The notes beneath the pieces were generated by a model, which was given only the letters and a program-made list of their open reading frames with translations, was not told the DNA's origin and ran no database searches. A program made the translations under genes and the position numbers. Of a stretch of 64,000 nt of DNA, positions 47,163 to 64,000 are shown piece after piece. The DNA lies in NCBI GenBank assembly GCA_003223115.1, contig QHXW01000041.1, positions 972-64,971 on the forward strand. The letters run 5' to 3'. The stretch's first letter is position 1. Each line of letters starts with the position of its first letter. Source of the DNA: Acidobacteriota bacterium. Lineage in GTDB: Bacteria > Acidobacteriota > Terriglobia > Bryobacterales > Bryobacteraceae.

Positions 47163-48103
47163 ATGCTTAGAATTCTTGCTGTTGTGACGGTGTCAATCAT
47201 GTTGCTTGTCACTACGCCTGTTCAGGCGTGGTTCGACGGCGGCCACATGGTCGTGGCTTACATCGCCTATCAAAAACTGGCTCCCGTGACGCGTGCGCGT
47301 GTCGATGGATTGTTGAAGCTGAACCCCATGTACTCGGCATGGACCAAGGGTGTGACTCAGAAGCGTAAAGGTCTGGTTGCTTTTCTGCGCGCCGCAACGT
47401 GGCCCGACTGTATCAAGCAAGCCACGTGCGCCCCCGGCTACACCAGCGACGGCGGCGATATTCCTCCCGGCAACCCCACCGACAATCAGAACATCGGTTA
47501 TGTGGACAAGTTGATGCACAAGTACTGGCATTTCGTCGACCTTCCCGACTCGGCCGGCTCGCCGGGTGAACCGCCGAAGGTTCCGAACGCCCAGACAGAA
47601 ATTCTCCTCCTGGCACACGATATCGGAAAAAACGAGTCAGACGACATCAAGTCATATGACGTGGTTTGGCTGGAACACCTGGTAGGCGATGTTCATCAGC
47701 CGCTGCATTCCACCTCTCGCTTCACCAAGAATCATCCGCACGGAGAAACTCTGTGCCTTTTTGTGCGAAGCCCTGCAGAGATGAGCTTCATGCATATTGG
47801 GATGGCCTGCTCGGGGACAAGCTGACGGTCGCGCAGGTAAGCAAGAAGGGCCAGAGCCTGCTTGCTGGCGGAAAACCTGCCGGTGCGGACAACGCTACGC
47901 CGGTTTCGTGGATCACGGATAGTTTCGATCTCGCGAAAGCCGTGGTCTACGTTCCGCCGATCAGTGACGACAACAATCCCTCGGTAAAGATCTCGCCCCG
48001 GCCCGACGCCGCCTATCGGACGAAAGCGTCCGCAGTGGCGCAATCTCAGGTGACCCTCGCCGGCTACCGCCTGGCAGCTCTGTTAAATCTCAATTTGAAG
48101 TGA
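47163..48103 (+). pseudogene. S1/P1-family nuclease interrupted by one frameshift (~47,745-47,765)
   Basis: Signal peptide, then the mature N-terminus WFDGGHMVVAYIAY and HQPLH motif in frame 1. The ELHAYWDG motif and C-terminus continue in ORF 47666-48103, in a second frame. Confidence 0.7.
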
Positions 48104-48169
48104 GCCGTCGGCCGGAGTGGATAATCCCTCACGAGCACCAACCCGTCTATACCGCATTGCGGTATACTG

Positions 48170-48573
48170 TTGGTGGACCATGCGCCCGAGATCACGGTCC
48201 TGCAATTGCCGAAGTTCAAGGCCGAGGCCACGGAGTTGATAGGAGCGGACGGTATCGAAGCGTTGGCCGTTTATCTGACCGATCGTCCAGACGCGGAAGA
48301 CGTGATACCGCAGGTTTACGGCTCGAAGAAATATGCCTTTACATGGATCTCAGGCTGGAAGGCAAACCGGGCGCCGGCGGAGTCCGGAAGCTGCGATGGG
48401 CGGCGAAGGACAAGGGGAAGCGCGGTGGCGCACGGATCAATTACCTTTACGTTGTGATCGCCGTACGCAACGACCTCCTACGCTGTTATGCGAAAAATGT
48501 TCGAATGGATCTCTCCTCTCACGAAAAGAACGAACTGCGGCAAATCGCGGCTTGTCTGAAAGGAGTCAATAGA
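48170..48573 (+). pseudogene. RelE/HigB-like toxin (GGxRKLRW...GKRGGxR type), frameshifted and lacking its own stop
   Basis: The N-terminal part (MVDHAPEITVLQLPKFKAEA...DVIPQ) is in the frame of ORF 48170. The conserved GGVRKLRWAAKDKGKRGGARINYLY...DLSSHEKNELRQI core is in the frame of ORF 48100. Confidence 0.5.
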
Positions 48574-48885
48574 ATGCCAAAGAGAGCGCCGGCGAAGAAG
48601 ACGACTTTTGGAGCGGACCTGATCGACGGAATGAAGCTGGTCCTGGTGCACCAGCGGGGCAAAATCGAACTGGAACAGGTTTGGCCGAAGCCGGTCGATG
48701 TAAAGGCTATTCGCAAATGGGTAAAAATGTCGCAGGCAGAATTCTCAAGAACCTATGGCATCAGCAAGCGCGCACTGCAGGAATGGGAGCAGGGCGGACG
48801 TCAGCCGGACTCGGCCGCGCGCGCGTACCTAACGGTCATCGCGAAGGAACCCGCGGTGGTGCGCCGGGCACTCGCCAGCGCATGA
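48574..48885 (+). CDS. XRE-family HTH antitoxin partner
   Basis: ATG at 48574 preceded by AAAGGAG. HTH region IRKWVKMSQAEFSRTYGISKRALQEWEQGGRQP. Confidence 0.65.
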   Translation: MPKRAPAKKTTFGADLIDGMKLVLVHQRGKIELEQVWPKPVDVKAIRKWVKMSQAEFSRTYGISKRALQEWEQGGRQPDSAARAYLTVIAKEPAVVRRALASA

Positions 48886-51106: not shown

Positions 51107-51350
51107 CGGTCGCCTCCTGGATGCTTCGCAACAAAATCATCGGTCGGGCGACTGGTGGAGTCAAATCGGTTAGCAGCTGGGAGTGCCGGAAGGGAAGAAA
51201 GAGCTTCCAAAGGGAAAGAAACCGAAGGTTTCGTCCCCTTTGGGCTACTTCACGAACCATGCGAAAGGCCCAATGGCATCTGAAAGCCAAGCTTTTGGAA
51301 ATTTCAAATATGTTTGGCTAGAATTTCGGTCTTCAGCTGCTGATTCTAAA

Positions 51351-51408
51351 TGGTGGGCGCGGCAGGACTCGAACCTGCGGCCTCCTGCGTGTGAAGCAGG
51401 CGCGCAAT
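51351..51408 (-). pseudogene. tRNA-Val(CAC) 3' fragment (anticodon arm, variable loop, T arm, acceptor 3' strand, CCA)
   Basis: The reverse complement reads GCGC-G-CCTGC-TTCACAC-GCAGG-AGGCC-GCAGG-TTCGAGT-CCTGC-CGCGCCC-A-CCA. No matching 5' acceptor strand or normal D arm lies upstream. Confidence 0.7.
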
Positions 51409-51656
51409 CTACGCGTGGTTGATTCTGCAGGTACTTATAAGAGCGTATTTGACGCATAAGGCGCCCTGAGCGCCAGATTTCCGCCCAAAACTCCGCCCAA
51501 AAAAGTTTGGGCGGAAAATGCTGCACGGTGAAATAGTTCGTCGATTGCGACCTTGCCGGATGCAGTAGGGCGCGTGCGTCGCGGCCCGCAGCGCGGCCAA
51601 TCCGGAGGCCCGTGTTCGCGTAGAGGGGAGTCCGGATTCTCCCGGCCTCGCCATTT

Positions 51657-51685
51657 TTGCAATTTCGCAACTTTGCGAATAGACT
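51657..51685 (+). promoter_or_regulatory. Putative sigma70-type promoter with operator palindrome for TA copy 1
   Basis: TTGCAA, a 17-nt spacer, then TAGACT. The spacer holds a perfect inverted repeat TTCGCAA-CT-TTGCGAA (51664-51679). A GTG start lies 9 nt after the -10 element. The motif is conserved in copy 2. Confidence 0.45.
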
Positions 51686-51694
51686 GGATTTCGA

Positions 51695-52061
51695 GTGCCC
51701 AGAACGAGAGTGGTCCTCTACCGGGAGGAAGACGGATCGCCCGTTCCTTGAGTGGTTCACCAAATTACCGGCGAAAGTGCAGGACAAGTGCTATCTCCGA
51801 TTGGACCGACTACGGGAAATGGGACACGAACTGCGGCGGCCCGAAGCCGACCTCTTGCGTGACGGGATTTACGAACTGCGGGTCAGCCTGCAGGGGGTGC
51901 ATCACCGGGTTCTGTACTTCTTCCATGGGACGGTTGCCGCAGTGGTCTCGCACGGCCTTGTGAAAGAGCGGGTAGTCCCGCCGAAGGAAATCGATCGTGC
52001 TGTCGAGCGCAAGAAGCGATTCGAAGCGAATCCGCAGAAGCACACTTACGAGGAGGCTTGA
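51695..52061 (+). pseudogene. RelE/ParE-superfamily toxin (phage Gp49/HigB-2-like), copy 1, frameshifted
   Basis: The GTG start gives VPRTRVVLYREEDGS and then a premature stop. The remainder (PFLEWFTKLPAKVQDKCYLRLDRLREMGHELRRPEADLLRDGIYELRV...) is in another frame because of the 2-nt deletion relative to copy 2. Confidence 0.65.
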
Positions 52062-52062
52062 T

Positions 52063-52572
52063 ATGGCAAAAAGGTCGAAACCAACCGGTGATGCAGTGGA
52101 GATCCTGCACCGCCGCTTCTACGCAGGCAGGCCGAGTCGGCTGAAGAAGCTGGAAGAGGCGCGGGCGAACGAAGAGATCGCCCGCAAAATTCACGCATTG
52201 CGCACAGCGGCAGGCCACACTCAATCTCAACTTGCCAAGCTCATCGGTACCACGGCATCGGTCGTCTGCCGCCTTGAAGACGCGGATTACGAAGGCCATT
52301 CCCTGGCAATGTTGCGAAGGATCGGCGCGTTCGGCATAGCCAGAACTGGTCCCGGACTGATCAGACCTCGGCAGGCCGTAGAACACGAAAGCGGCCGCAA
52401 CATCCGCGCGGTTCGTCGCGAAACAGAAGCATTGGCCTCCAAGCCAACAGAAGCCCGTCACAAACAGCTTGCGTTCGCCGCCGGTAGCTTCGTCCGCCCT
52501 GGGGAAAATAGGGCGTGCGGCGCCCGGTTGGTGCCCGTGCCGGAATGCAGATCGGGAACCACCGCGACATAG
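52063..52572 (+). pseudogene. XRE-family HTH antitoxin, copy 1, C-terminus replaced after a ~44-nt deletion
   Basis: Near-identical to copy 2 through ...HSLAMLRRIG (one substitution in the compared stretch), then reads through into unrelated sequence until 52572. Confidence 0.6.
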
Positions 52573-52607
52573 CCGGCTTCGGCAAGCTGATCGGCCAGCT
52601 CCTGAAC
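52357..52607 (-). pseudogene. Dienelactone-hydrolase-family fragment, copy 1
   Basis: Minus-strand readings ELADQLAEAGYVAVVPDL and VTGFCWLGG...AAAFVFYG are in different frames and match the two conserved DLH segments. Confidence 0.45.
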
Positions 52608-52940
52608 TCAGTCCGTAAGACGCAGTCAGGCCGCCCGCGCGCTAGGCTGGGGGGTTCAAACGATTCTAGGAAGAAATAAGCTGCGGGGGCGCGGCGGCTA
52701 GGCTACGCGAAGATACCAACTGCGAACTCAAGGTTTTCCTGTGTGCGAAGTGTGTTCGAACTACAAGTAGATCGGAAGTCGAGACGGCGATGGGTCGTCG
52801 ATTCGATCCAGAGTCGACCGACCCACAATCCCACATTCTATTACCCAATCTCTGGCTCTCTGGCCTGCGGATGATGACATTTCCGAGCCGATCTAGGCAT
52901 AATTAGGTAACATCCCCCGAGAAGAAAGAGCCTGGAACTG

Positions 52941-55574
52941 GTGTGGCATAGATTTAAGAAGAACCGGCCATCTCCTGGCGCCGTTGCACCCGCTTTGAAT
53001 GGGCCCGCTCTCAGTACTGGAGTGGAGGCCAGCGTCCGGCAACTGATCGCCAACGGCAAACATAAGGTCGCGGTCGAAACCGCTAAGGAGCTTCACAAGG
53101 CGCAGGCCACAGCCGCCTCCGAAGCGCTGCTGGTGGATGCGTACGCCGCGCGGATTCAATCGCTCATCGATCAGAATCTGGCGGCGGAGGCAAAGGCTCT
53201 GCTGGAGTTGGTGCGTGAGCGCTACCCGTCTGCGCGGGAGCGGCTGAATGGGCGCAACGGCTCCGCCGGAATGCACGCCGGCCGGCTCGAGGATCTGGTG
53301 CGGCCGCTGAACGATCCGGAGCTAAGCGCAGAACGCCGCGCCGCCATCGAAGCAGCCGTCGCGCGCGAGGCTGGTGACCTCGCGTCGCTGGTGGAGTGTG
53401 CCGCATTGCCCCCGGAACATCCTCTGCGCAAGGCCGCATCCGCATTGCAGCGCGCGTTCCTCGCCGTGACTGGAGGGCCCGTTGGCGAGGAGGCGGTCGA
53501 ACTGCCGGAGGTCTCGCACCGCAGCCCCCTGGCGCCCTGGAAACTGCTAGTGCGCGCCATCGCCTGCTTCTATCGGAGGGAGGACGAAGCATGCCGGCGA
53601 TACCTGGAAGCCATCAAGCCGGAAGCCGCGGCGGCGCGGCTGGTTCCGGCGATGCAGGCGATGCTCGGCGGCAAACCGACGGGGCTGACGCCCGCGGCTG
53701 CCGCGCTGGTATCGTCAACAACCTCCAGTCCCGCGGTGCTGCGGAAGGCACTGGAGGCATTGGAGGTGGCTTTCGACTCGCACAAAGACGGGTCCATTCT
53801 CAAAGGCATCCGCGAAGCCGTGCGGGCGTGCCGCGAGGCTGCGCCCGATCAGATCGAGAGACTGAAACAGCACATTTCGGTGCGCAGCGCGCTGGCCAGC
53901 ATGAGCATGGAAAAGGTCAAGGCGGCCATGGGCGAGGCTTCCCGGCACGACGCCTATTTCTTGAGGCTATTCGCGCGTGGGATGGAGGAACTCGGGGACC
54001 CCGAGAACGTCGCGATGGCCTGCGCGACCTGGGATGAGTACCGGCAACACGCGGTGCGCGAAGGATGGTTCACGGCGAACGGCCCGGAAGCCGCCACGCT
54101 CTATCTCCACATGGTGGGTGTGCTGCGAAAGCTGCCTCGCGAATTGCTAGTGGATCTGCAAAAAACCGCCTGCCGGCAAAACAAGAAGTCCGCCGAGGAG
54201 CTGTATTTTCTGTACCCCGAGAAGCTGTATGAACGCGCCTGCGCGCTCGATCCGCATTTCGAATCGTTCTCGCAATGGACGGATTGGGCGAAACGCGGCC
54301 GGGCAGGGACGGCCGAGAGAGTGGCCGAAGCGTGGCACAAGATCCGCCCGATGGATATCGAGCCGATTCTCCTCCTGATGGAAGAGAAGGAGAAGCGAAA
54401 CGCGTTCCATACGGCGCTGCAATATTTGGCTAAGGCTGAGCGCATCGACAGCGTTCATCCCGTCGTGCGCAGAGCGCGGCTGCGTCTGCTGGCGGCGAGC
54501 GCCCTGCGGCACCTCCAGCAGAAAAAACCTAACCTGGCGGAGGAGAAGCTGGCCGAGATGGGGATGCTGCCTCAGTCCCAGCAGGGTGACCGGCCGGCTT
54601 TCCTGGCGGCCTTGCGCTACATGGTCTGCACGGTTCGCGGTGCGAGCGATCGGTCCGCCGCACATCGCGCGGAAGTGGAGCGAGTGCTCGGAAGCAAAGC
54701 GGCTGCGGCCCTGCTGATCTTCGGCGTGGCCAATGCTTCGAAGCAGGGCGCACTCGAGAATCTACCTCCCATCGAGATGCTTGGCAAAACAGAACGCGCC
54801 GCGCTGCCCGAGGCCGTGATTCGCGTAGTCGAGCTGGCCAAGGACATGCAAATGAGCCGGCCGATTCCCAGGGATTGGCTGGCGGAAGCGGCGAAGCAAT
54901 TCCCGCGAAGCAGCCAATCGCTCAATGTGGGCGAGCTTCAGACCCTGGCGGAGGCAGGCTTGTATGCGGAGCAGTTCGAAATGGCTTATGCGGTTTCGGC
55001 GGCCGGGATGGAGCGCGGCGGTCCCACCGTAGCGAGCTTTCTGCTACTGCGTGCACTGTCCTTACCGGGGTACCAGGAAGAGCGAAGGGCCGTTTGCGCC
55101 GTGGCGGCAGCACAGCTTGCGCGCCAGCAGCGCCATATGGACGTGGTCGATAGGGCCGTGGAACTGTTTGCCGATTCCCCTTTCGGCGATATCTCCCTCA
55201 CTCCCGAACAGGCATCCACGGTGGTTCGAAAGGAAACGGCGGAACGGGCGTTCCCCACGGCGCACCGCCCCGGCCCCGACTATAGCGATTTCTTAGGGGC
55301 GGCCTTGTGCAATTGTCCCAAGTGCCGCCGCGCAAGCGGAGAGGCCGTCGGTCCATTCGAAGATTTCGAGGAGGATGATGACGATGTCGACCTTGACGCA
55401 TTTCTCGACGGAATGGAACTCCCGCCGGACATGCCGCCGGAGATCGCGAGAATCCTGCTCGAGGAGACCCAGAAGTCCGCCCAGCGCGGCGAGTCTCTCG
55501 ATTCCCTGCTGAACCGGTTGTTCGGATCGGGGACAGGATTCGGCGGGAGACGCAAGAAAGGCAGGCGGAGATAA
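52941..55574 (+). CDS. 877-aa all-alpha (TPR/HEAT-like) protein of unknown function; first gene of the Hsp70 operon
   Basis: GTG start. Long A/L/E/R-rich helical sequence with no P-loop or other catalytic motif seen. The C-terminus has CNCPKC, an acidic run FEDFEEDDDDVDLDAFLD and a basic tail GGRRKKGRRR. Its stop overlaps the next start (TAATG). Confidence 0.7.
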   Translation: MWHRFKKNRPSPGAVAPALNGPALSTGVEASVRQLIANGKHKVAVETAKELHKAQATAASEALLVDAYAARIQSLIDQNLAAEAKALLELVRERYPSARERLNGRNGSAGMHAGRLEDLVRPLNDPELSAERRAAIEAAVAREAGDLASLVECAALPPEHPLRKAASALQRAFLAVTGGPVGEEAVELPEVSHRSPLAPWKLLVRAIACFYRREDEACRRYLEAIKPEAAAARLVPAMQAMLGGKPTGLTPAAAALVSSTTSSPAVLRKALEALEVAFDSHKDGSILKGIREAVRACREAAPDQIERLKQHISVRSALASMSMEKVKAAMGEASRHDAYFLRLFARGMEELGDPENVAMACATWDEYRQHAVREGWFTANGPEAATLYLHMVGVLRKLPRELLVDLQKTACRQNKKSAEELYFLYPEKLYERACALDPHFESFSQWTDWAKRGRAGTAERVAEAWHKIRPMDIEPILLLMEEKEKRNAFHTALQYLAKAERIDSVHPVVRRARLRLLAASALRHLQQKKPNLAEEKLAEMGMLPQSQQGDRPAFLAALRYMVCTVRGASDRSAAHRAEVERVLGSKAAAALLIFGVANASKQGALENLPPIEMLGKTERAALPEAVIRVVELAKDMQMSRPIPRDWLAEAAKQFPRSSQSLNVGELQTLAEAGLYAEQFEMAYAVSAAGMERGGPTVASFLLLRALSLPGYQEERRAVCAVAAAQLARQQRHMDVVDRAVELFADSPFGDISLTPEQASTVVRKETAERAFPTAHRPGPDYSDFLGAALCNCPKCRRASGEAVGPFEDFEEDDDDVDLDAFLDGMELPPDMPPEIARILLEETQKSAQRGESLDSLLNRLFGSGTGFGGRRKKGRRR

Positions 55575-55858
55575 TGGAACCCAGAGAAGTACTGGGCATC
55601 AACCAGGATGCCGGCGAAGAAGAGATCCGCACCGCTTATGTGCGCAAGGTGAAGGAACATCCGCCGGACCGGTCGCCGGAGGAGTTCGAGCGTATTCGCG
55701 ATGCTTATGATAGCCTGCGTGATCCCCGCCGGCGCATGCGGGACAGGCTGCTTTCCGTCGATCCGTTTGCACCGTTTGTATCCGTTATCGAGCTCAAGGT
55801 GCGGGAGCGCCGGTTCGCCGGGCCGCAGCCGTGGCTGGAGGTTCTGAAAGGAAAGTGA
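55574..55858 (+). CDS. Minimal J-domain protein (94 aa) with HPPD in place of HPD
   Basis: EVLGINQDAGEEEIRTAYVRKVKEHPPDRSPEEFERIRDAYDSLRD matches J-domain helices I-III. There is no G/F, zinc-finger or client-binding domain. Confidence 0.8.
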   Translation: MEPREVLGINQDAGEEEIRTAYVRKVKEHPPDRSPEEFERIRDAYDSLRDPRRRMRDRLLSVDPFAPFVSVIELKVRERRFAGPQPWLEVLKGK

Positions 55859-55865
55859 TCGGGGG

Positions 55866-56585
55866 ATGAACCGGGAGGAGATCCTGCGGCGCTTTGAGGA
55901 ATGGTTGGACGGCGCGCTCGCCGCCGAGGAGCCGCCGCGCGGGGTCGACGCGGAAATTCTGGCGGCAATGGCAGGAGACAGCGAGGACGGGGCGCGCCCG
56001 GTGCCAAACGCCGCTTACTCATTGTGGGCGGCCATGACGGCGCTTACGCAGGAAGTCAAGCTGCAGGGAAGGTCCTTCAAGGAATTGAACGACACGCTTG
56101 GCTCGCAGGCGAACCGGATGGCTGAACGCGAGCGCGACCTGCTGCGTGAGACCGAGCGCCGCTGCCGCAAGGAAATCCTTGGCGTCCTGATCGATCTGCG
56201 CGACCGGCTGGGGCGCGGCCTGGAATCGGTGCGGGCAAGCGAGGCGGGGATCTCGAAGGCCGCCTGGCGAGGCTGGCACGTGCGCATCTTCTCGCGGCCA
56301 GGCGAGGATGCCGTAGGCGCCACGCTCGCAGCCTTGAGGAAAGGGTACGAGCTGGGGCTCGATCGACTGGATCAAACCCTGGAGGAATTCAACACGCGCG
56401 AAATTCCCTGTGAGGGGCACGCGTTCGATCCGCGGCGGATGAACGCCATCGATCGCCAGGAATCGGGCGCCGTTCCCGAAGGCACGGTGATCGAGGTTTA
56501 CCGCAGCGGTTACGAATGGAATGGAGAAGTGTTTCGACCGGCGCAGGTGAAGGTTTCGTGTGCGCCGGCGGGAGAAAGAAAATGA
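55866..56585 (+). CDS. GrpE-like nucleotide-exchange factor
   Basis: Long helical N-terminal half followed by a GrpE beta-domain signature (GHAFDPRRMNAI...GTVIEVYRSGYEWNGEVFRPAQVKVS). A GGGGG run precedes the ATG. The stop overlaps the Hsp70 start (ATGA). Confidence 0.8.
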   Translation: MNREEILRRFEEWLDGALAAEEPPRGVDAEILAAMAGDSEDGARPVPNAAYSLWAAMTALTQEVKLQGRSFKELNDTLGSQANRMAERERDLLRETERRCRKEILGVLIDLRDRLGRGLESVRASEAGISKAAWRGWHVRIFSRPGEDAVGATLAALRKGYELGLDRLDQTLEEFNTREIPCEGHAFDPRRMNAIDRQESGAVPEGTVIEVYRSGYEWNGEVFRPAQVKVSCAPAGERK

Positions 56586-58399
56586 GTGATCTAATTGCCG
56601 GTATCGACTTAGGGACCACGAATTCGGAGATCGCCGCGTTCGCCGGCGGCCAGGTGCGAGTGCTCGGGCCAGGAGATACGCGCATGCTGCCCTCCTGCGT
56701 AGGATTTTCGCCAGCGGGAGAACTGCTGGTGGGCGAGGCGGCGCGCAACCAGCAGGCGCTTTATCCCGAGCGCACTGTGCGCAGCATCAAGCGCAAGATG
56801 GGCAGCGAGGAAAAAGTGCGCGTGGGCAGCAAGGATTTTCTGCCACAGGAGATCTCCGCGCTCATCCTGCGCGAACTCGCGGAGTGGGCTCACCGCGCGC
56901 TGGGCGAGCGCCCACAGAGGGCCGTGATCACCGTGCCAGCCTACTTTTCGGATCCGCAGCGGAATGCCACGCGCGAGGCCGGCGCGCTGGCCGGGCTGGA
57001 AGTGGTGCGCATTCTCAACGAGCCTACGGCGGCCAGTCTGGCCTACGGCTACGGGGACGGATCGCCGCACACGGTGCTCATTTACGACCTCGGCGGCGGC
57101 ACCTTCGATGTCTCGGTGGTGACGGTGGAGGGCGACATCACCGAGGTGCTGGCGAGCCACGGCAACAACCACCTCGGCGGCGACGACTTCGATGATCTGC
57201 TTACAGAGCGGCTGGCGGCGGAGTTTGAAAAGCAGCACGGCGTCGATGTCCGCCAGGGACATCCGGCGGCGAAGGCACGGCTCTGGTGGGCGGCGGAAGA
57301 AGCCAAGAAGAAACTGAGCTTCGAACCGTACGTCAAGGTCCGCGAGGAGGCGCTGCTCACCCGGCTCTTCCGGCCCCTGCATCTCGAAGTGGAAATTTCG
57401 CGCGACGAATATGAAGGCATGATTCGTCCGCTGGTGGAATCCACGCTCGACAGCGTGTCCAAAGCGCTGCAGGATTCCGGGAAGAAGCCGGGCGACATGG
57501 ATGCGATTCTGCTGGTCGGCGGCTCCACGCGCACGCCGCTGGTCTCCAGCCTGCTCATCGAAAACATCGGTTTGGAGCCCCGGCAGGACGTGCATCCGGA
57601 TCTCGCCGTGGCGCTGGGCGCCGGGGTCATGGCGTCGCGCCTCGCCGGGCGCGCCGTGGAACGCGTGCTGGTGGACGTTTCGCCATACTCCTTCGGCGTC
57701 TCATATCTCGGCGACCGCGGCGGATATCCCTATCCGCACTGTTACAAGCCGATTATCCGGCGAAATACGCCGCTGCCTTTGACGCGCACCGAGCAGTACA
57801 TGACCAGCCACCCCTATCAAACCGAGGTGGATGTCCACGTATATCAGGGCGACGATGAGGACGCGCTGAAGAACATCCTGGTTGGGGATTTTCGCGTCGA
57901 AGGCCTGACCGCGATGGAGGATGCAAACGAGATTCTCTGTCGTATGCGCCTCGATCTGGACGGCATTCTGGAGGTCGCGGCGGTGGAGAAGCGGACCGGT
58001 AAGTCGAAGCAAATCCGGATCGCCAATGCGCTGCGTGCGAAGAGCGCCGAGGAGATCGCGGCGGGGCGGGAGCAGATTCAGGAGTTGTACGAGACGCGCG
58101 GCGAGATGGTGGGCGATGCGTGGGAGACGGCAGAAGATCTCGAAGAAGAAGTGGTGGATGGGGGCGCTCAGGTGGTCGAAATGCCTGCTCCAGTGCGCGC
58201 GGACGGCGACGCGGAAATAGAGAGCCTGCTGGAGCGTTCACACTGGCTGCTCGCGAAGATGCATGCGGAAGACCGCGAAGAGGCGATCGACCTGCACGAG
58301 AAAATCGATACGGCCGCGGCATCCGGGGACGTGGCGGCGTTGAAGGAGGCTAGCGGCGCGCTGAAGGAGTTGCTCTTCTTCGTCGAGGGCCAGAATTGA
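56582..58399 (+). CDS. Hsp70-family ATPase chaperone (DnaK/HscC-like paralogue), full NBD + SBD + lid
   Basis: IDLGTTNS, ITVPAYF, NEPTAA, DLGGGTFDVS and VGGSTRTP nucleotide-binding motifs. SBD-beta region VDVSPYSFGV. Acidic helical C-terminus without EEVD. Confidence 0.9.
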   Translation: MSDLIAGIDLGTTNSEIAAFAGGQVRVLGPGDTRMLPSCVGFSPAGELLVGEAARNQQALYPERTVRSIKRKMGSEEKVRVGSKDFLPQEISALILRELAEWAHRALGERPQRAVITVPAYFSDPQRNATREAGALAGLEVVRILNEPTAASLAYGYGDGSPHTVLIYDLGGGTFDVSVVTVEGDITEVLASHGNNHLGGDDFDDLLTERLAAEFEKQHGVDVRQGHPAAKARLWWAAEEAKKKLSFEPYVKVREEALLTRLFRPLHLEVEISRDEYEGMIRPLVESTLDSVSKALQDSGKKPGDMDAILLVGGSTRTPLVSSLLIENIGLEPRQDVHPDLAVALGAGVMASRLAGRAVERVLVDVSPYSFGVSYLGDRGGYPYPHCYKPIIRRNTPLPLTRTEQYMTSHPYQTEVDVHVYQGDDEDALKNILVGDFRVEGLTAMEDANEILCRMRLDLDGILEVAAVEKRTGKSKQIRIANALRAKSAEEIAAGREQIQELYETRGEMVGDAWETAEDLEEEVVDGGAQVVEMPAPVRADGDAEIESLLERSHWLLAKMHAEDREEAIDLHEKIDTAAASGDVAALKEASGALKELLFFVEGQN

Positions 58400-58830
58400 C
58401 CCGATCCGTTCGAGTGGCGCACGCGCTCGTGCGCGCCGCGTCGACATTCTTGTCGACACTGGTGCGACGCCCTCCGAAGACCCCCTCTAGCAGGGTACCG
58501 GACATACCACGAACGACTCTTTCCTCGGGATTGCGCAGCGCCGGCGTCGAGAACCGGTGCCCCGTCTGCCAGGCGCGTTTTCGCGGCGCGCGCATCTGCT
58601 CACGTTGCGGCGCCGACCTGGAGCCCCTGATGTTGCTGGCTGTGAAGGCTTGGCAATTGCGTCAAGCAGCCAGGCAGGCGCTGGAGGCCGGGAACGTGGA
58701 GCGGGCTCTCGGGTTCGCCATCGAGGCGCAAGGCATCCAAGGCACCGACGGCGGAGAGGCGTTACGTTTGCTGGGCGCGTGGTTGAAGACCGTATGCGGG
58801 TCGTCATCCTGTTGCTCCTCGCCGCGGTAG
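58396..58830 (+). CDS. Zinc-ribbon protein with C-terminal helical hairpin; last gene of the Hsp70 operon
   Basis: CPVCQARFRGARICSRCG (CxxC-N10-CxxC), then a TPR-like helix pair. The TTG at 58396 overlaps the Hsp70 stop. A TTG at 58531 is an alternative start, because the N-terminal ~45 aa look non-proteinaceous. Confidence 0.5.
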   Translation: MTRSVRVAHALVRAASTFLSTLVRRPPKTPSSRVPDIPRTTLSSGLRSAGVENRCPVCQARFRGARICSRCGADLEPLMLLAVKAWQLRQAARQALEAGNVERALGFAIEAQGIQGTDGGEALRLLGAWLKTVCGSSSCCSSPR

Positions 58831-58962
58831 CCTGCCTCGGGGCGGATATCCGCCGGAGCACTCACCAAGAATGTCGGCCCCCACTTACACCAAAACGCGT
58901 ACCGCAACGAAAACTGCACCTGAATTGATCTGCCCCGCGTTGATGCGGGCCGATGCTTCCAG

Positions 58963-59176
58963 GTGTCTTCCGATGAACTCAAGGCCGCCGTCTTCCTTTT
59001 CTACAGCCTACTTGACGAGCAGCAGCGTCGCCTGTTTGCCGGTCTGCAGTCCACGAAGCTGGGACACGGCGGCGATAGGCATTCTGGCTGAACTGCTGGG
59101 CCTGGATCCGCACACCGTCGTCCGCGGACATCGGCAACTGCTCAATCAGAATGTAACGACTGGGCGCTGTGGGTAG
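58963..59176 (+). mobile_element. N-terminal fragment of a transposase (ISAzo13-like HTH region), frameshifted
   Basis: LLDEQQRRLFAGLQSTKLGHGGDR in one frame, then IAELLGLDPHTVVRGHRQLL in another. No catalytic domain follows. Confidence 0.45.
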
Positions 59177-59353
59177 TTCGCCAATATTCAGTCCGAGGCC
59201 ATAGCATTGCTGTTCAGAGCGCTAGCGCTAGCAGCTCTGGAAATTCTCGGGTTCAGGCAAAGCAGGATCACGTGCAAGGTTTTTGGGCGGAATTTCATCT
59301 ACTTGGCTTGATGTTTTCCTTAATGCTGCGCGCGGAAATGATTGAAAAAGATA

Positions 59354-59411
59354 TGGTGGGCGCGCACGGACTCGAACCGTGGCCCTCCTGCGTGTGAAGC
59401 AGGCGCGCAAT
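59354..59411 (-). pseudogene. tRNA-Val(CAC) 3' fragment, second copy with a different T stem
   Basis: The reverse complement reads GCGC-G-CCTGC-TTCACAC-GCAGG-AGGGC-CACGG-TTCGAGT-CCGTG-CGCGCCC-A-CCA. No 5' half is present. Confidence 0.7.
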
Positions 59412-59643
59412 TAATGCATTATAGATTCTACAGCCCTTACATGCGCGTAGTTGACGTATTAGGCGTTCGGGCCGCCAAATTTCCGCCCAAAACTCCGCCC
59501 AAAAAAGTTTGGGCGGAAAATGCTGCACGGCGAAATACTCACGGCACGCTGAGTTCTGATTGCGACCTTGCCGGATCTTTAGGGCGCTTGCGTGGCGGGC
59601 ACCGCAGTGCGCCAATCCGGAGGCCCGTTCCCGCCTCGCCATT

Positions 59644-59672
59644 TTGCAATTTCGCAACTTTGCGAATAGACT
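59644..59672 (+). promoter_or_regulatory. Putative promoter/operator for TA copy 2
   Basis: Identical TTGCAA-N17-TAGACT, with the TTCGCAA-CT-TTGCGAA palindrome at 59651-59666. Confidence 0.45.
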
Positions 59673-59681
59673 GGATTTCGA

Positions 59682-60049
59682 GTGCCCAGAACGAGAGTGG
59701 TCCTCTACCGGGAGGAAGACGGATCGAGCCCGTTCCTTGAGTGGTCAGCAAATTATCGGCGAAAGTGCAGGACAAGTGCTATCTCCGATTGGACCGACTA
59801 CGGGAAATGGGCCACGAACTGCGGCGGCCCGAAGCCGACCTCTTGCGCGACGGGATTTACGAACTGCGGGTCAGCCTGCAGGGGGTGCATCACCGGGTTC
59901 TGTATTTCTTCCATGGGACGGTTGCCGCAGTGGTCTCGCGCGGCCTTGTGAAAGAGCGGGTAGTCCCGCCGAAGGAAATCGATCGTGCTGTCGAGCGCAA
60001 GAAGCGGTTCGAAGCGAATCCGCAGAAGCACACTTACGAGGAGGCTTGA
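59682..60049 (+). pseudogene. RelE/ParE-superfamily toxin (Gp49/HigB-2-like), copy 2, frameshifted at a different site
   Basis: The N-terminus VPRTRVVLYREEDGSSPFLEW is in frame. A 1-nt deletion near 59745 (GAGTGGTCA versus GAGTGGTTCA in copy 1) shifts the rest (ORF 59741-60049). Confidence 0.65.
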
Positions 60050-60050
60050 T

Positions 60051-60371
60051 ATGGCAAAAAGGTCGAAACCAACCGGTGATGCAGTGGAGATCCTGCACCG
60101 CCGCTTCTACGCAGGCAGGCCGAGTCGGCTAAAGAAGCTTGAAGAAGCGCGGGCGAACGAAGAGATCGCCCGCAAAATCCGCGCATTGCGCACAGCGGCA
60201 GGCCACACTCAATCTCAACTTGCCAAGCTCATCGGTACCACGGCATCGGTCATCTGCCGCCTTGAAGACGCGGATTACGAAGGCCATTCCCTGGCAATGC
60301 TGCGAAGGATCGGCGGCGCACTGAATCAGAGAGTCGAGATACGGTTCGTCCCGATGCGGCGCTCGGCATAG
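60051..60371 (+). CDS. XRE-family HTH antitoxin, copy 2 (apparently intact, 106 aa)
   Basis: The ATG lies 1 nt after the toxin stop and is preceded by GAGGAGG. HTH region RALRTAAGHTQSQLAKLIGTTASVICRLE. Confidence 0.7.
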   Translation: MAKRSKPTGDAVEILHRRFYAGRPSRLKKLEEARANEEIARKIRALRTAAGHTQSQLAKLIGTTASVICRLEDADYEGHSLAMLRRIGGALNQRVEIRFVPMRRSA

Positions 60372-60391
60372 CAGAACTGGTCCCGGACAGA

Positions 60392-60638
60392 TCAGACCTC
60401 GGCAGGCCGTAGAACACGAAAGCGGCCGCCGGATCCGCGCGGTCCGTCGCGAAACAGAAGCCCTGGCTTCCAAGCCAACAGAAGCCCGTCACAAACAGCA
60501 TGCCATTCGCCTCCGTTAGCTTCGTCCGCCCTGCGGAAAATAGGGCGTGCGGCCCGCGGTTGGTGCCCATGCGGAAAGCAGATCGGGAGCCACCGCGACA
60601 TAGCCGGCTTCGGCGAGCTGATCGGCCAGATCCTGAAC
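60392..60638 (-). pseudogene. Dienelactone-hydrolase-family fragment, copy 2
   Basis: ADQLAEAGYVAVAPDL and VTGFCWLGSQGF...AAAFVFYG are in different frames on the minus strand. Confidence 0.45.
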
Positions 60639-60772: not shown

Positions 60773-61115
60773 GAGACGATGAATGTCGCGCGCTGCGGTT
60801 GTAGAGAATAGGGCAAGTAGATCAGCGACGATCGCGTTCCAACGGGTGAGCCCAACCCTGCCAGCGCGCGCTCCTGCTGAGCAACAATCGCCCCGTCAAC
60901 GCGCCACGGATCAGGAGATCCAAAAATGGAACTCGCGGCAACACGGCTTTGTGCCCCAAACTGCGTGGATTGCGCACTGCAAAGAGCTGTTCGGCTCGCC
61001 GCGCCCGGCACGTCACCCAACCAAAATAAAATACGTGCCCGCCAGAAAGGGTTGCGCCGATCAAGCAAGCATTCCGACGTTCGGCCTTGACCGTTCAGTT
61101 TCGAGTGCAGGCGAA

Positions 61116-62793: not shown

Positions 62794-63084
62794 GAGCCAC
62801 TCCGGGTACCGCAACACGGTTTCGGAGAGAAACCTGCTATACGAAAAAACGGTGATCAGATAGCTCAGCGCAGTGGGCGAGTTGGAAAGGCGATCGAAGC
62901 CGCTGGGGTTTTCAATGCGCAGATGCTCGAGAAAATGTAGCGATTGGTCGGGATCCGGCACCGATGCCAGCAGCACCTGGATGCGAGCGACAATGGCTTC
63001 CGGCAGCCCGCCGGAAAGCCGGTTTAGTTGGTCGCGAGCGCGGCTGGGATTGCGGAATTCGATCTCTTCAATAATACGCGGCAT
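62794..63084 (-). pseudogene. glnE: N-terminal ~97-aa remnant of glutamine-synthetase adenylyltransferase (GlnE)
   Basis: LLASVPDPDQSLHFLEHL...ALSYLITVFSYSRFLSETVLRYPEWL matches the GlnE N-terminal pattern. The ORF then degenerates and stops at 62635. There is no room for the remaining ~800 aa before the next gene. Confidence 0.55.
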
Positions 63085-63130
63085 GGGGCATCACAACCCG
63101 GTGACGGGTCAGATCGACACAAAGCCAAGG

Positions 63131-64000
63131 GTGATTATAGCGTCAGCATCACGGCGGGGCAGTCGTTGCGCGCAAGTCTCTTTATGTTTCCTTGTAACGG
63201 TATGTACGGCGGCTCCGTTGAAGTACCAGGATGTTTTTGGCTCGGACACCACAGTTTCGGCCGGCGCAGTTGACGCGGCTGGAAATGTGTATCTCACCGG
63301 TTCGACGACGTCCCCTTTGCTGCCGGTGACACCGCGAGCATTTCAGAAGACCTTTATTCAGAGCCAATGCGGGACTTATTATTTCCCAGGACCAAATGGA
63401 AGCCCCGGAGAGTCAATTCCCATTCCGTGCGCGCACGCGTTCATAGCCAAGATCGCGGCGGATGGCGCCAGCCTTGTGTACTTAACGTACTTAGGTGGTG
63501 AACTCACCGACTACGTCAACGCGATTGCGGTTGACGCCGCAGGTAACGCCTACTTGACGGGCACCACGTCTTCAACAACCTTTCCGGTCACTTTACTTGC
63601 CTACCGGTCGAAGCCCGGCAGTGGATTTGTCACCAAGCTGAGTGCGGATGGCAGTGCGCTATTATTTTCAACTTATTTCGACGGCGTCCAAGGCGAGGCC
63701 ATAACGTTCGATGCGTCGGGCAACGTCTATGTGGCCGGCGGCGCTGATGGAGCCAAATTTGACACCACGCCAGGAGCGTTTCAATCCAAGGGCTACCTAG
63801 GCCATGGGGATGCGTTCGTTTTCAAACTGAACCCGTATGGCACGCGTCTGCTGTATTCGACGCTAGTAGGCGGTACTTTTGATGACTGGGCGACATCGCT
63901 TGCCGTGGACCAGCAGGGAAACGCTTATATCGCAGGCATTACGGCATCAGTCCCGGCCTACGCCCACCTTGCCGGTCCGGAGGGCTTTACACCGTTTCCA
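63131..64000 (+). CDS. SBBP/beta-propeller-repeat secreted protein, 3' end outside the window
   Basis: This open frame is absent from the ORF track because it has no stop in the window. It shows repeated units (VDAAGNVYLTGSTTS..., VDAAGNAYLTGTTSSTTFP, FDASGNVYVAGGADG, VDQQGNAYIAGITAS). The start is uncertain (GTG 63131 or ATG 63083). Confidence 0.7.
   Translation, partial: MIIASASRRGSRCAQVSLCFLVTVCTAAPLKYQDVFGSDTTVSAGAVDAAGNVYLTGSTTSPLLPVTPRAFQKTFIQSQCGTYYFPGPNGSPGESIPIPCAHAFIAKIAADGASLVYLTYLGGELTDYVNAIAVDAAGNAYLTGTTSSTTFPVTLLAYRSKPGSGFVTKLSADGSALLFSTYFDGVQGEAITFDASGNVYVAGGADGAKFDTTPGAFQSKGYLGHGDAFVFKLNPYGTRLLYSTLVGGTFDDWATSLAVDQQGNAYIAGITASVPAYAHLAGPEGFTPFP

Follow-up and report, generated by a model that had tools for sequence, protein, structure and literature searches.

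Direct repeats around an Hsp70 operon in a Bryobacteraceae genome: probable tandem accretion of two decayed islands at tRNA-Val(CAC)

Introduction

How did two long direct repeats come to lie on either side of an Hsp70 operon, and can the DNA between them still move? The question is raised by a stretch of 64,000 nucleotides (the window) from an Acidobacteriota bacterium of the family Bryobacteraceae, which lies on one contig (QHXW01000041.1, called C231 here) of a draft assembly of 594 contigs and 9.1 Mb with an estimated contamination of 4.8%. Each repeat joins a piece of a tRNA-Val(CAC) gene to a toxin-antitoxin (TA) module and a dead fragment of a dienelactone-hydrolase (DLH) gene. The locus is probably the product of tandem accretion of two related, decayed tRNA-Val islands, with an interval between the repeats that resembles a cis-mobilizable element (CIME).

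Islands inserted by tyrosine integrases carry a copy of the tRNA 3′ end that restores the target gene, and the displaced original half stays at the far end of the island. Island accretion and decay at tRNA genes are well documented in Firmicutes, Proteobacteria and Dehalococcoides; to our knowledge, such accretion has hardly been described in Acidobacteriota. Large soil genomes of that phylum are thought to expand by paralogy and mobile DNA.

Two direct repeats of uneven divergence

Repeat search and MAFFT alignment define two copies in direct orientation, copy A at 51350-52607 (1258 bp) and copy B at 59353-60638 (1286 bp), with 8003 bp between their left ends and 8031 bp between their right ends. 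An initial annotation, made from the sequence alone, had proposed such a pair, and it is borne out: outside both ends of the repeats the sequence is unrelated between the copies (47% and 55% identity). It had also given the two repeats the same four parts in the same order, which Rfam, Pfam and alignment confirm in both: a 3′ piece of tRNA-Val(CAC), a Gp49 toxin gene, a helix-turn-helix (HTH) antitoxin gene and a DLH piece (DLH′). About 250 bp of non-coding DNA separate the tRNA piece from the toxin gene. The order stands, while not all of the genes are whole, both toxins being frameshifted and antitoxin A lacking 44 bp. The 6.7 kb given there for the Hsp70 cassette is the size of the whole inter-copy stretch (6.75 kb), of which the operon block itself takes up 5.9 kb.

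The contrast drawn there between a nearly identical TA portion and diverged tRNA-adjacent DNA is equally clear in a per-segment alignment (97.3-97.8% against 69.6%). From left to right, identity between A and B is 87.5% in the tRNA piece, 69.6% in the adjoining 70 nt, 96.7% in a 60-nt motif block, 78.9% with 43 gap columns in a variable stretch of ~120 nt, 100% in the promoter and toxin 5′ end, 97.8% in the toxin, 97.3% in the antitoxin and 92.5% in DLH′. The longest exact run shared by the copies is 123 bp, inside ~680 bp at an identity of at least 97.6%.

The unconstrained tRNA-side arm has mismatches at 40 of 159 sites (25%), compared with 20 of 266 (7.5%) at neutral sites on the right-hand side (p=1e-6). 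Because this arm is significantly more diverged than the DLH pseudogene, the two sides of the repeat, ~300 bp on the left and ~950 bp on the right, have separate histories. The right-hand side of the two copies must go back to a more recent common ancestor than the left, and an exchange of modules among island variants could be the source of this difference in age.

Displaced tRNA-Val(CAC) halves and their array

The displaced 3′ half in copy A (51351-51414, minus strand) is recognised by RF00005 with 34.2 bits at 51362-51414 (model positions 10-63, above the gathering score), and comprises the CCA end, the acceptor 3′ strand, the T arm (GCAGG/CCTGC), the anticodon arm and a rudiment of the D arm. 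Its counterpart in copy B (59354-59421, minus strand; RF00005 24 bits at 59365-59421) has the T arm CACGG/CCGTG. ARAGORN finds no complete tRNA in the window. Genome-wide there is one complete tRNA-Val(CAC), on the minus strand of contig C232 (6344-6419), together with four 3′ fragments, namely A, B and those on contigs C440 and C386. The T stem of the resident gene reads ACAGG/CCTGT, and the differences between A and B are three consecutive compensated pairs of the T stem, which stays paired. When halves A, B and C440 were each fused in silico with the resident 5′ half, ARAGORN called every product a tRNA-Val(cac). Since compensated, tRNA-competent changes are not expected from drift in a dead duplicate, pieces A and B derive from different functional tRNA-Val ends.

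Where the complete gene lies relative to these pieces depends on the continuation of C231, which terminates inside a beta-propeller-repeat gene. C232 in turn starts, in the same orientation, within the C-terminal portion of a gene of this type. A paralogous locus on contig C98 matches both the end of C231 (C98:2768-4291, 86.8%) and the start of C232 (C98:4582-5244, 88.7%), leaving a gap of ~290 bp, and no other contig in the genome matches the C231 end or the C232 start part. Because this paralogue uniquely bridges the two ends as parts of a single gene, C232 very probably follows C231. Given that join, ~11.6 kb separate piece B from the complete tRNA-Val(CAC), which lies to its right and shares the strand of both pieces. 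The array then reads, all on the minus strand, piece A, 8.0 kb, piece B, ~11.6 kb and complete gene, the last link again by way of the join. Successive integration of islands at a tRNA 3′ end would be expected to give such a layout.

The two fragments elsewhere in the genome (C440:13539-13673 and C386:10873-10922) have a common island-side sequence, TTTTCCATGGCCTTACATCAATTCAGGGAATCT, different from that of A and B, which suggests a second island family using tRNA-Val(CAC). Matches of 46-62 nt to tRNA-Thr(CGT) occur on C499, C381, C84 and C18, contigs that also carry tyrosine integrases, and tRNA-Thr is probably another integration hotspot in this genome.

Motif block, arms and integrases

Between the tRNA piece and the TA module lies a conserved motif block, at 51476-51535 in copy A, with TTCCGCCCAAA at 51479, a direct CCGCCCAAAA and an inverted TTTGGGCGGAA at 51506, and at 59478-59537 in copy B, with motif copies at 59481 and 59508. 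Two of its 60 positions differ between the copies (p=7e-6 against the arm's own rate) and the flanking stretches are 70-79% identical; the block may consist of arm-type binding sites for an integrase or excisionase. A second type of arm (59269-59352) abuts tRNA piece B and has one inverted TTTGGGCGGAA at 59282. These 84 bp to the left of piece B are 89.7% identical to the flank of the C440 tRNA-Val fragment.

A scan for the inverted motif pair in one genome per prokaryotic species matched 17 loci, six of them in Acidobacteriota; those outside the phylum are presumably chance matches to a short palindrome. The block adjoins tRNA-Val(CAC) in five other Acidobacteriota genomes. At loci L067, L069 and L076 a tRNA-Val 3′ fragment and the block have 69-75% identity to units A and B, with which they are collinear; at L071 and L075 the order is complete tRNA-Val(CAC), motif block, C-terminal end of a gene for a tyrosine integrase. 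Taken together, the collinear fragments and the integrase loci indicate that tRNA-Val(CAC) islands with such arms form a family in the phylum. Integrases next to the target gene are thus seen in other genomes (L071, L075) and none at this locus, an absence that is the defining trait of a CIME and that leaves the link between island and integrase circumstantial.

The toxin-antitoxin module

In copy A, the TA module begins with a promoter/operator region (51655-51694, plus strand; TTGCAA-17-TAGACT, with the inverted repeat TTCGCAA/TTGCGAA), which forms the left edge of the mobile module; 51655-51739 is 100% identical between the copies. Of the TA promoter annotated initially, the conserved left edge holds in ~75 related genomes; a strict sigma-70 scan does not call the promoter, which matches at 8/12 by eye. 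The Gp49-family (HigB/RelE-like) toxin gene A that follows (51695-52061, plus strand; PF05973 E=1.5e-17) is a pseudogene that has lost 2 bp between 51739 and 51740, and its frame from GTG 51695 stops at 51749-51751, after 18 codons. The reference for the TA frames was an intact module (83% identity) in a closed genome of the same family, G021. Compared with G021 and copy B, the HTH (Xre-type) antitoxin gene A (52063-52340, plus strand; HTH_31/HTH_3) has a 44-bp deletion after 52317, with loss of the C-terminus and stop codon. Toxin gene B (59682-60049, plus strand; PF05973 E=9.8e-15 on the downstream part) is likewise a pseudogene, with a 1-bp deletion at ~59745 (after ...FLEW) and an open reading frame (ORF) from GTG 59682 that ends out of frame at 59951. 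Antitoxin gene B (60051-60371, plus strand; HTH_31/HTH_37/HTH_3) encodes 106 aa, full-length against G021, and is the only intact gene of the four. Toxin and DNA-binding antitoxin domains thus lie side by side, with a spacer of 1 nt and a conserved palindrome upstream, in what are two relics rather than working modules.

The toxins of A and B differ at 4 synonymous and 2 non-synonymous sites (pS 0.055, pN 0.009), and the antitoxins at 5 and 2 (pS 0.078, pN 0.010). Synonymous divergence in the TA genes matches that of the adjoining DLH pseudogene (7.5%; p=0.84). A dN/dS of ~0.15 indicates that the TA genes once functioned, and purifying selection accounts for their near-identity in copies that are ~7% apart at neutral sites. 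The initial annotation had favoured two related elements or gene conversion over a recent simple duplication. Gene conversion as the cause of the TA near-identity is rejected, the synonymous divergence being equal to that of the neighbouring pseudogene, and it is not needed, because only the non-synonymous TA sites are conserved (~1%). Since purifying selection left its mark on both copies, the frameshifts are recent.

Outside this genome, ~440 related genomes were searched. The TA core, bounded by the promoter (59638-59644) and the stop codon of the antitoxin (60371), is common to 74 of 316 genomes of the family at 70-88% identity and always has the same edges; none of the ~440 relatives has more of the repeat than this core. 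Relatives of the same genus are 75-80% identical, with flanks that are on different contigs or non-syntenic, and are too distant for a single-copy or empty site to be recognised in them. Among 20 related genomes, six (L045, L048, L050, L052, L054 and L010) have a tRNA-Ala(GGC) gene that points toward the antitoxin, its 3′ end 44-1300 bp away from the TA module. Variable borders linked to tRNA genes seem to be the usual place of the module, with a different tRNA than here. Further left in the window, at the margin of the decayed region, a single ORF of 261 aa (48100-48885) combines two weak similarities, one RelE-like (E=5e-4) and one HTH/MqsA-like (E=1e-6), and is probably one more TA pair, either damaged or fused.

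DLH fragments and a third partial copy

DLH pseudogene fragment A (52341-52607, minus strand), which has a GFCxGG motif and an internal frameshift, and fragment B (60372-60638, minus strand), which is 92.5% identical to it, match PF01738 on their conceptual translations (E=2e-4 and 5e-3). The same peptide stretches are contained in the full-length DLH of a relative (PF01738 E=4e-44). Both fragments span roughly residues 75-175 of a ~262-aa enzyme, short of a full alpha/beta-hydrolase domain and with broken frames. Their internal frameshifts are different and their outer truncation point is the same, as it is on contig C181.

After copy A, the island-end module continues for 244 bp (52608-52851), a continuation that is also present on C181 and is absent after copy B; in blastn, 52492-52851 matches C181:11295-10917 at 84.7%. 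The third, partial copy on C181 (9872-11782, L003) has a 5′-truncated antitoxin, DLH′, the 244 bp and then a gene with a TIR_2 domain (E=1e-7), and on its other side it abuts fragments of a TonB receptor. The DNA that follows the TA/DLH′ module is therefore the Hsp70 operon in A, the TIR_2 gene on C181 and, without the 244 bp, a permease fragment in B.

Tandem accretion and its alternatives

In the reading that we regard as probable, each repeat would mark the end, remote from the integrase, of an island whose integration target is the tRNA-Val(CAC) 3′ end, and would be made up of the displaced tRNA 3′ half, an arm with the CCGCCCAAA motif block, the Gp49/HTH TA module and the dead DLH fragment. 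Two related, distinct islands would lie in tandem downstream of the sole complete tRNA-Val(CAC), in the order, from left to right on the plus strand, piece A, island 1, piece B, island 2 and, on the next contig, the complete tRNA-Val. Island 1 (8.0 kb) would consist of TA-A, DLH′, the Hsp70 operon and the second arm at 59269-59352, taken as the integrase-proximal arm, and island 2 (~11.6 kb) would be heavily scrambled. Both would have lost their integrase, leaving island 1 as a decayed element between two att-type cores, like a CIME, whose cargo, the Hsp70 operon, was imported from another Bryobacteraceae lineage. Purifying selection acted on both TA modules through most of the period after the copies split (~7% neutral divergence), and the modules have since decayed independently. 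The part of the initial annotation that saw two related elements here is upheld by the distinct functional tRNA-Val 3′ halves, the divergence of the arms (p=1e-6), the second arm before B and the co-oriented complete tRNA-Val downstream. From this arrangement we infer integrase-mediated integration at the locus and the order of events.

The interval may still be open to deletion, excision or amplification, either through the 1.3-kb repeats or through the att cores with an integrase supplied in trans. RecA-type deletion, excision as a circle of ~8 kb or amplification is plausible because the copies share ~680 bp at no less than 97.6% identity, with exact runs of up to 123 bp.

Several observations weigh against tandem accretion of islands. 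Matches to the tyrosine-recombinase domain PF00589 number 74 in the genome, and none is on C231, C232, C440, C386 or C181; tblastx finds no integrase remnant to the left of piece B, nor beside the C440, C386 and C232 sites. Both ends of an intact island of the family were not found in a single genome in our search, and in one closed relative the fragments are far from the complete tRNA gene. The join of C231 to C232 comes from a paralogue, not from reads. The complete tRNA gene is adjoined by a 5′-truncated TonB-receptor pseudogene and then by insertion sequence (IS) fragments, with no island arm, so the right end of island 2 needs a later deletion. Island 2 itself consists mostly of paralogous gene fragments and not of typical island genes.

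The same map could be produced in other ways. Circular DNA, such as an excised island or a plasmid, carrying one unit and the operon may have recombined through the TA segment of a resident unit in a Campbell-type insertion, giving two hybrid repeats around the cargo without any site-specific step at this position. The substrate is present in the ~680 bp at 97.6% identity or more with exact runs of up to 123 bp, the locus is without an integrase, and the outcome would have the same layout, with the second arm on the left of B. We nevertheless judge this unlikely: it would itself call for a pair of related elements and for incoming DNA with an att-type structure, which makes it a variant of tandem accretion, there is no crossover mark inside the TA genes, and it makes the co-orientation with the complete tRNA-Val a coincidence where site-specific accretion predicts it. 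Were the repeats instead a plain segmental duplication of a dead junction unit, by unequal crossing-over or IS activity, with neutral divergence afterwards and the operon inserted later or carried along, the common outer truncation point of DLH′ would be explained, and part of the unit does have a single origin; the region is rich in IS and gene fragments and the genome in paralogous segments. A left arm that is 25% diverged against ~7% at neutral sites on the right (p=1e-6) speaks against it, as do three compensated stem pairs with both halves tRNA-competent, which would be unexpected for drift in a dead fragment, and the fact that copy B has a left arm of its own, common to C440. A simple duplication is improbable on these grounds.

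An assembly artefact is the least attractive of the alternatives and in our estimate very improbable. The contig path through A, cassette and B would then have taken a wrong turn at a repeat or be chimeric, built from two co-occurring strains, the true state being one hybrid unit and a separate molecule, for example a circular one. A draft of 594 contigs with 4.8% estimated contamination invites that suspicion, as do the exact runs of up to 123 bp shared by the repeats and an internal duplication on contig C379 that is itself perhaps an assembly problem. Duplications made by an artefact are normally identical, however, and these copies have private indels (2 bp, 1 bp, 44 bp, and 13-27 bp in the arm) in addition to ~7% neutral divergence. 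Unique sequence adjoins the repeats on all four sides, and nearby IS copies match other contigs of the same genome at 95-98%.

The Hsp70 operon

The five-gene operon between the repeats (52860-58785, plus strand) has a promoter-like site at 52874-52903. Its genes, all on the plus strand, encode an 877-aa protein with no known domain (52941-55574), a 94-aa J-domain protein (55574-55858; Pfam DnaJ) with an HPPD motif at 55658-55669, a GrpE-like protein (55866-56585; Pfam GrpE), an Hsp70 of 605 aa from MSDLIAG (56582-58399; Pfam HSP70), whose start is that of 605-aa homologues, the longest ORF running from 56516, and a small zinc-ribbon-like protein (58396-58830) that has weak, below-threshold matches only. 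The Hsp70 scores 458 bits against an NCBIfam equivalog cut-off of 648 and GrpE is far under its cut-offs, while the J protein is a J-domain only, with HPPD in place of HPD. To judge from these features, the operon is an atypical paralogous chaperone system and not the canonical DnaK-DnaJ-GrpE housekeeping set. HPPD is kept in all homologues examined, including those at L062:3278-3565 and L064:12628-12912 and the genome's own paralogue at C379:1165-1485, and is a family trait rather than a local mutation. Assignment of the operon to a defence system was considered and dropped, PADLOC-DB having no match for any of its five proteins.

Five other Bryobacteraceae contigs carry cassettes whose DNA is 87-91% identical to the operon, a similarity that breaks off sharply at either end; the cassettes occupy at least four different neighbourhoods. 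Other genes on those contigs match this genome at only 67-71.5% (pyruvate carboxylase 71.5%), and this genome's second cassette, on C379, is 69-71% identical to those cassettes. The GC content of the operon, 62-67% against 55-60% around it, is 5-7 points higher. Because of the identity gap, the lower identity of the C379 cassette and the raised GC, the operon must have been acquired horizontally from another Bryobacteraceae clade, on top of a native paralogue. Two contigs of that donor clade have common flanks at 92% identity, from which vertical inheritance of the cassette within the clade follows. There are no att-like repeats at the ends of the transferred operon, where homology runs exactly from the promoter to the last stop codon.

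Contigs C379 and C532 stop inside the paralogous cassette, so that its flanks are not seen. C379:1485-4680 contains an internal duplication of ~1.1 kb, with identical ORF starts (1485-3113/3528-4277 and 2998-3516/4162-4680), which is possibly an assembly problem. Elsewhere, a different putative TA pair directly precedes the cassette at L082:7199-7818 and L084:6730-7205 (a small gene with PIN, and DUF433 with DUF5615), and at L062 and L064 a tRNA 3′ end faces it, with a tRNA-Arg 8 bp after the cassette and a tRNA-Thr 100 bp before it.

One might combine these strands and regard the operon as a self-contained accessory module, exchanged among Bryobacteraceae at variable, TA-rich borders of tRNA islands and here still mobilisable or amplifiable as a unit through the repeats or, given a tRNA-Val integrase in trans, through the att cores. 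As a whole, we think this combination improbable; if it were true, the host would gain a stress or defence function with tunable copy number.

Decayed DNA around the repeats

The stretch around the array contains permease pieces, IS copies and an incomplete paralogue of the C98 locus with glnE and the propeller gene. Fragments of an ADOP permease lie on either side of the insert, and the idea that they are one gene split by it is rejected, since they are not complementary halves in order: in alignment with a 983-codon paralogue the right piece falls at residues 790-857, and the left piece, too, stems from the end of the periplasmic domain (MacB_PCD positions 118-204). From 62795 to 64000, and on through C231 and C232:1-652, runs a GlnE N-terminal stub with a propeller gene, an 85-89% copy of the C98 locus; homology to C98 begins exactly at the end of the GlnE similarity (62795). 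An IS with an rve_3 transposase fragment at 49399-50284 matches more than 10 contigs at up to 96-98%, and a 210-bp multi-copy element at 60874-61087 has 7 further copies at 80-86%.

Comparison with known systems

The locus is an ordinary structure of a known kind, well preserved in an under-studied phylum, and calls for no new mechanism. What it offers is several layers in one place: a succession of three distinct tRNA-Val 3′ halves, a candidate phylum-wide att arm motif, TA modules in mid-decay and a whole chaperone operon imported from another genus over a native paralogue. The atypical Hsp70 operon behaves as transferable cargo, and the locus is a concrete system for asking whether integrase-less islands of Acidobacteriota still mobilise in cis.

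Sublocation classes of tRNA-gene integration were reportedly set out by Williams in Nucleic Acids Research in 2002. As in tRNA-gene integration by tyrosine integrases, the block of identity here extends from the anticodon/D-arm region to the 3′ end of the gene, although no integrase is left at this locus. The TA modules resemble type II Gp49/HigB-Xre modules in their toxin-then-antitoxin order, palindromic operator-like upstream sequence and patchy spread (74/316), and differ from working type II modules in that both toxins are frameshifted and one antitoxin is truncated.

Tandem accretion and CIMEs at the 3′ end of a target gene are known from elements related to ICESt1/ICESt3 in Streptococcus thermophilus (PMC5704250). 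The present array is like theirs in having elements downstream of one target gene with direct repeats of the gene's 3′ end between them, and like their CIMEs in having an inner element without integration genes, att-type sites on both sides and related neighbours. Unlike those systems, it has no functional integrase-bearing partner island, both of its elements are decayed, and its direct repeats reach far past the att core (1.26-1.29 kb including the TA module); it also stands in Acidobacteriota, at tRNA-Val(CAC). In Dehalococcoides, tandem islands are marked by repeated ssrA 3′ ends, and some of them, without an integration module, have been proposed to be cis-mobilizable (PMC3146451). Copies of the target 3′ end, conserved DNA beside each and variable cargo are features that the present locus has in common with those islands. 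The Dehalococcoides islands use a serine recombinase and a 20-bp tmRNA repeat and carry reductive dehalogenases, whereas here the repeat is a tRNA half of ~55-60 nt, related genomes have tyrosine recombinases, and the cargo is a chaperone operon.

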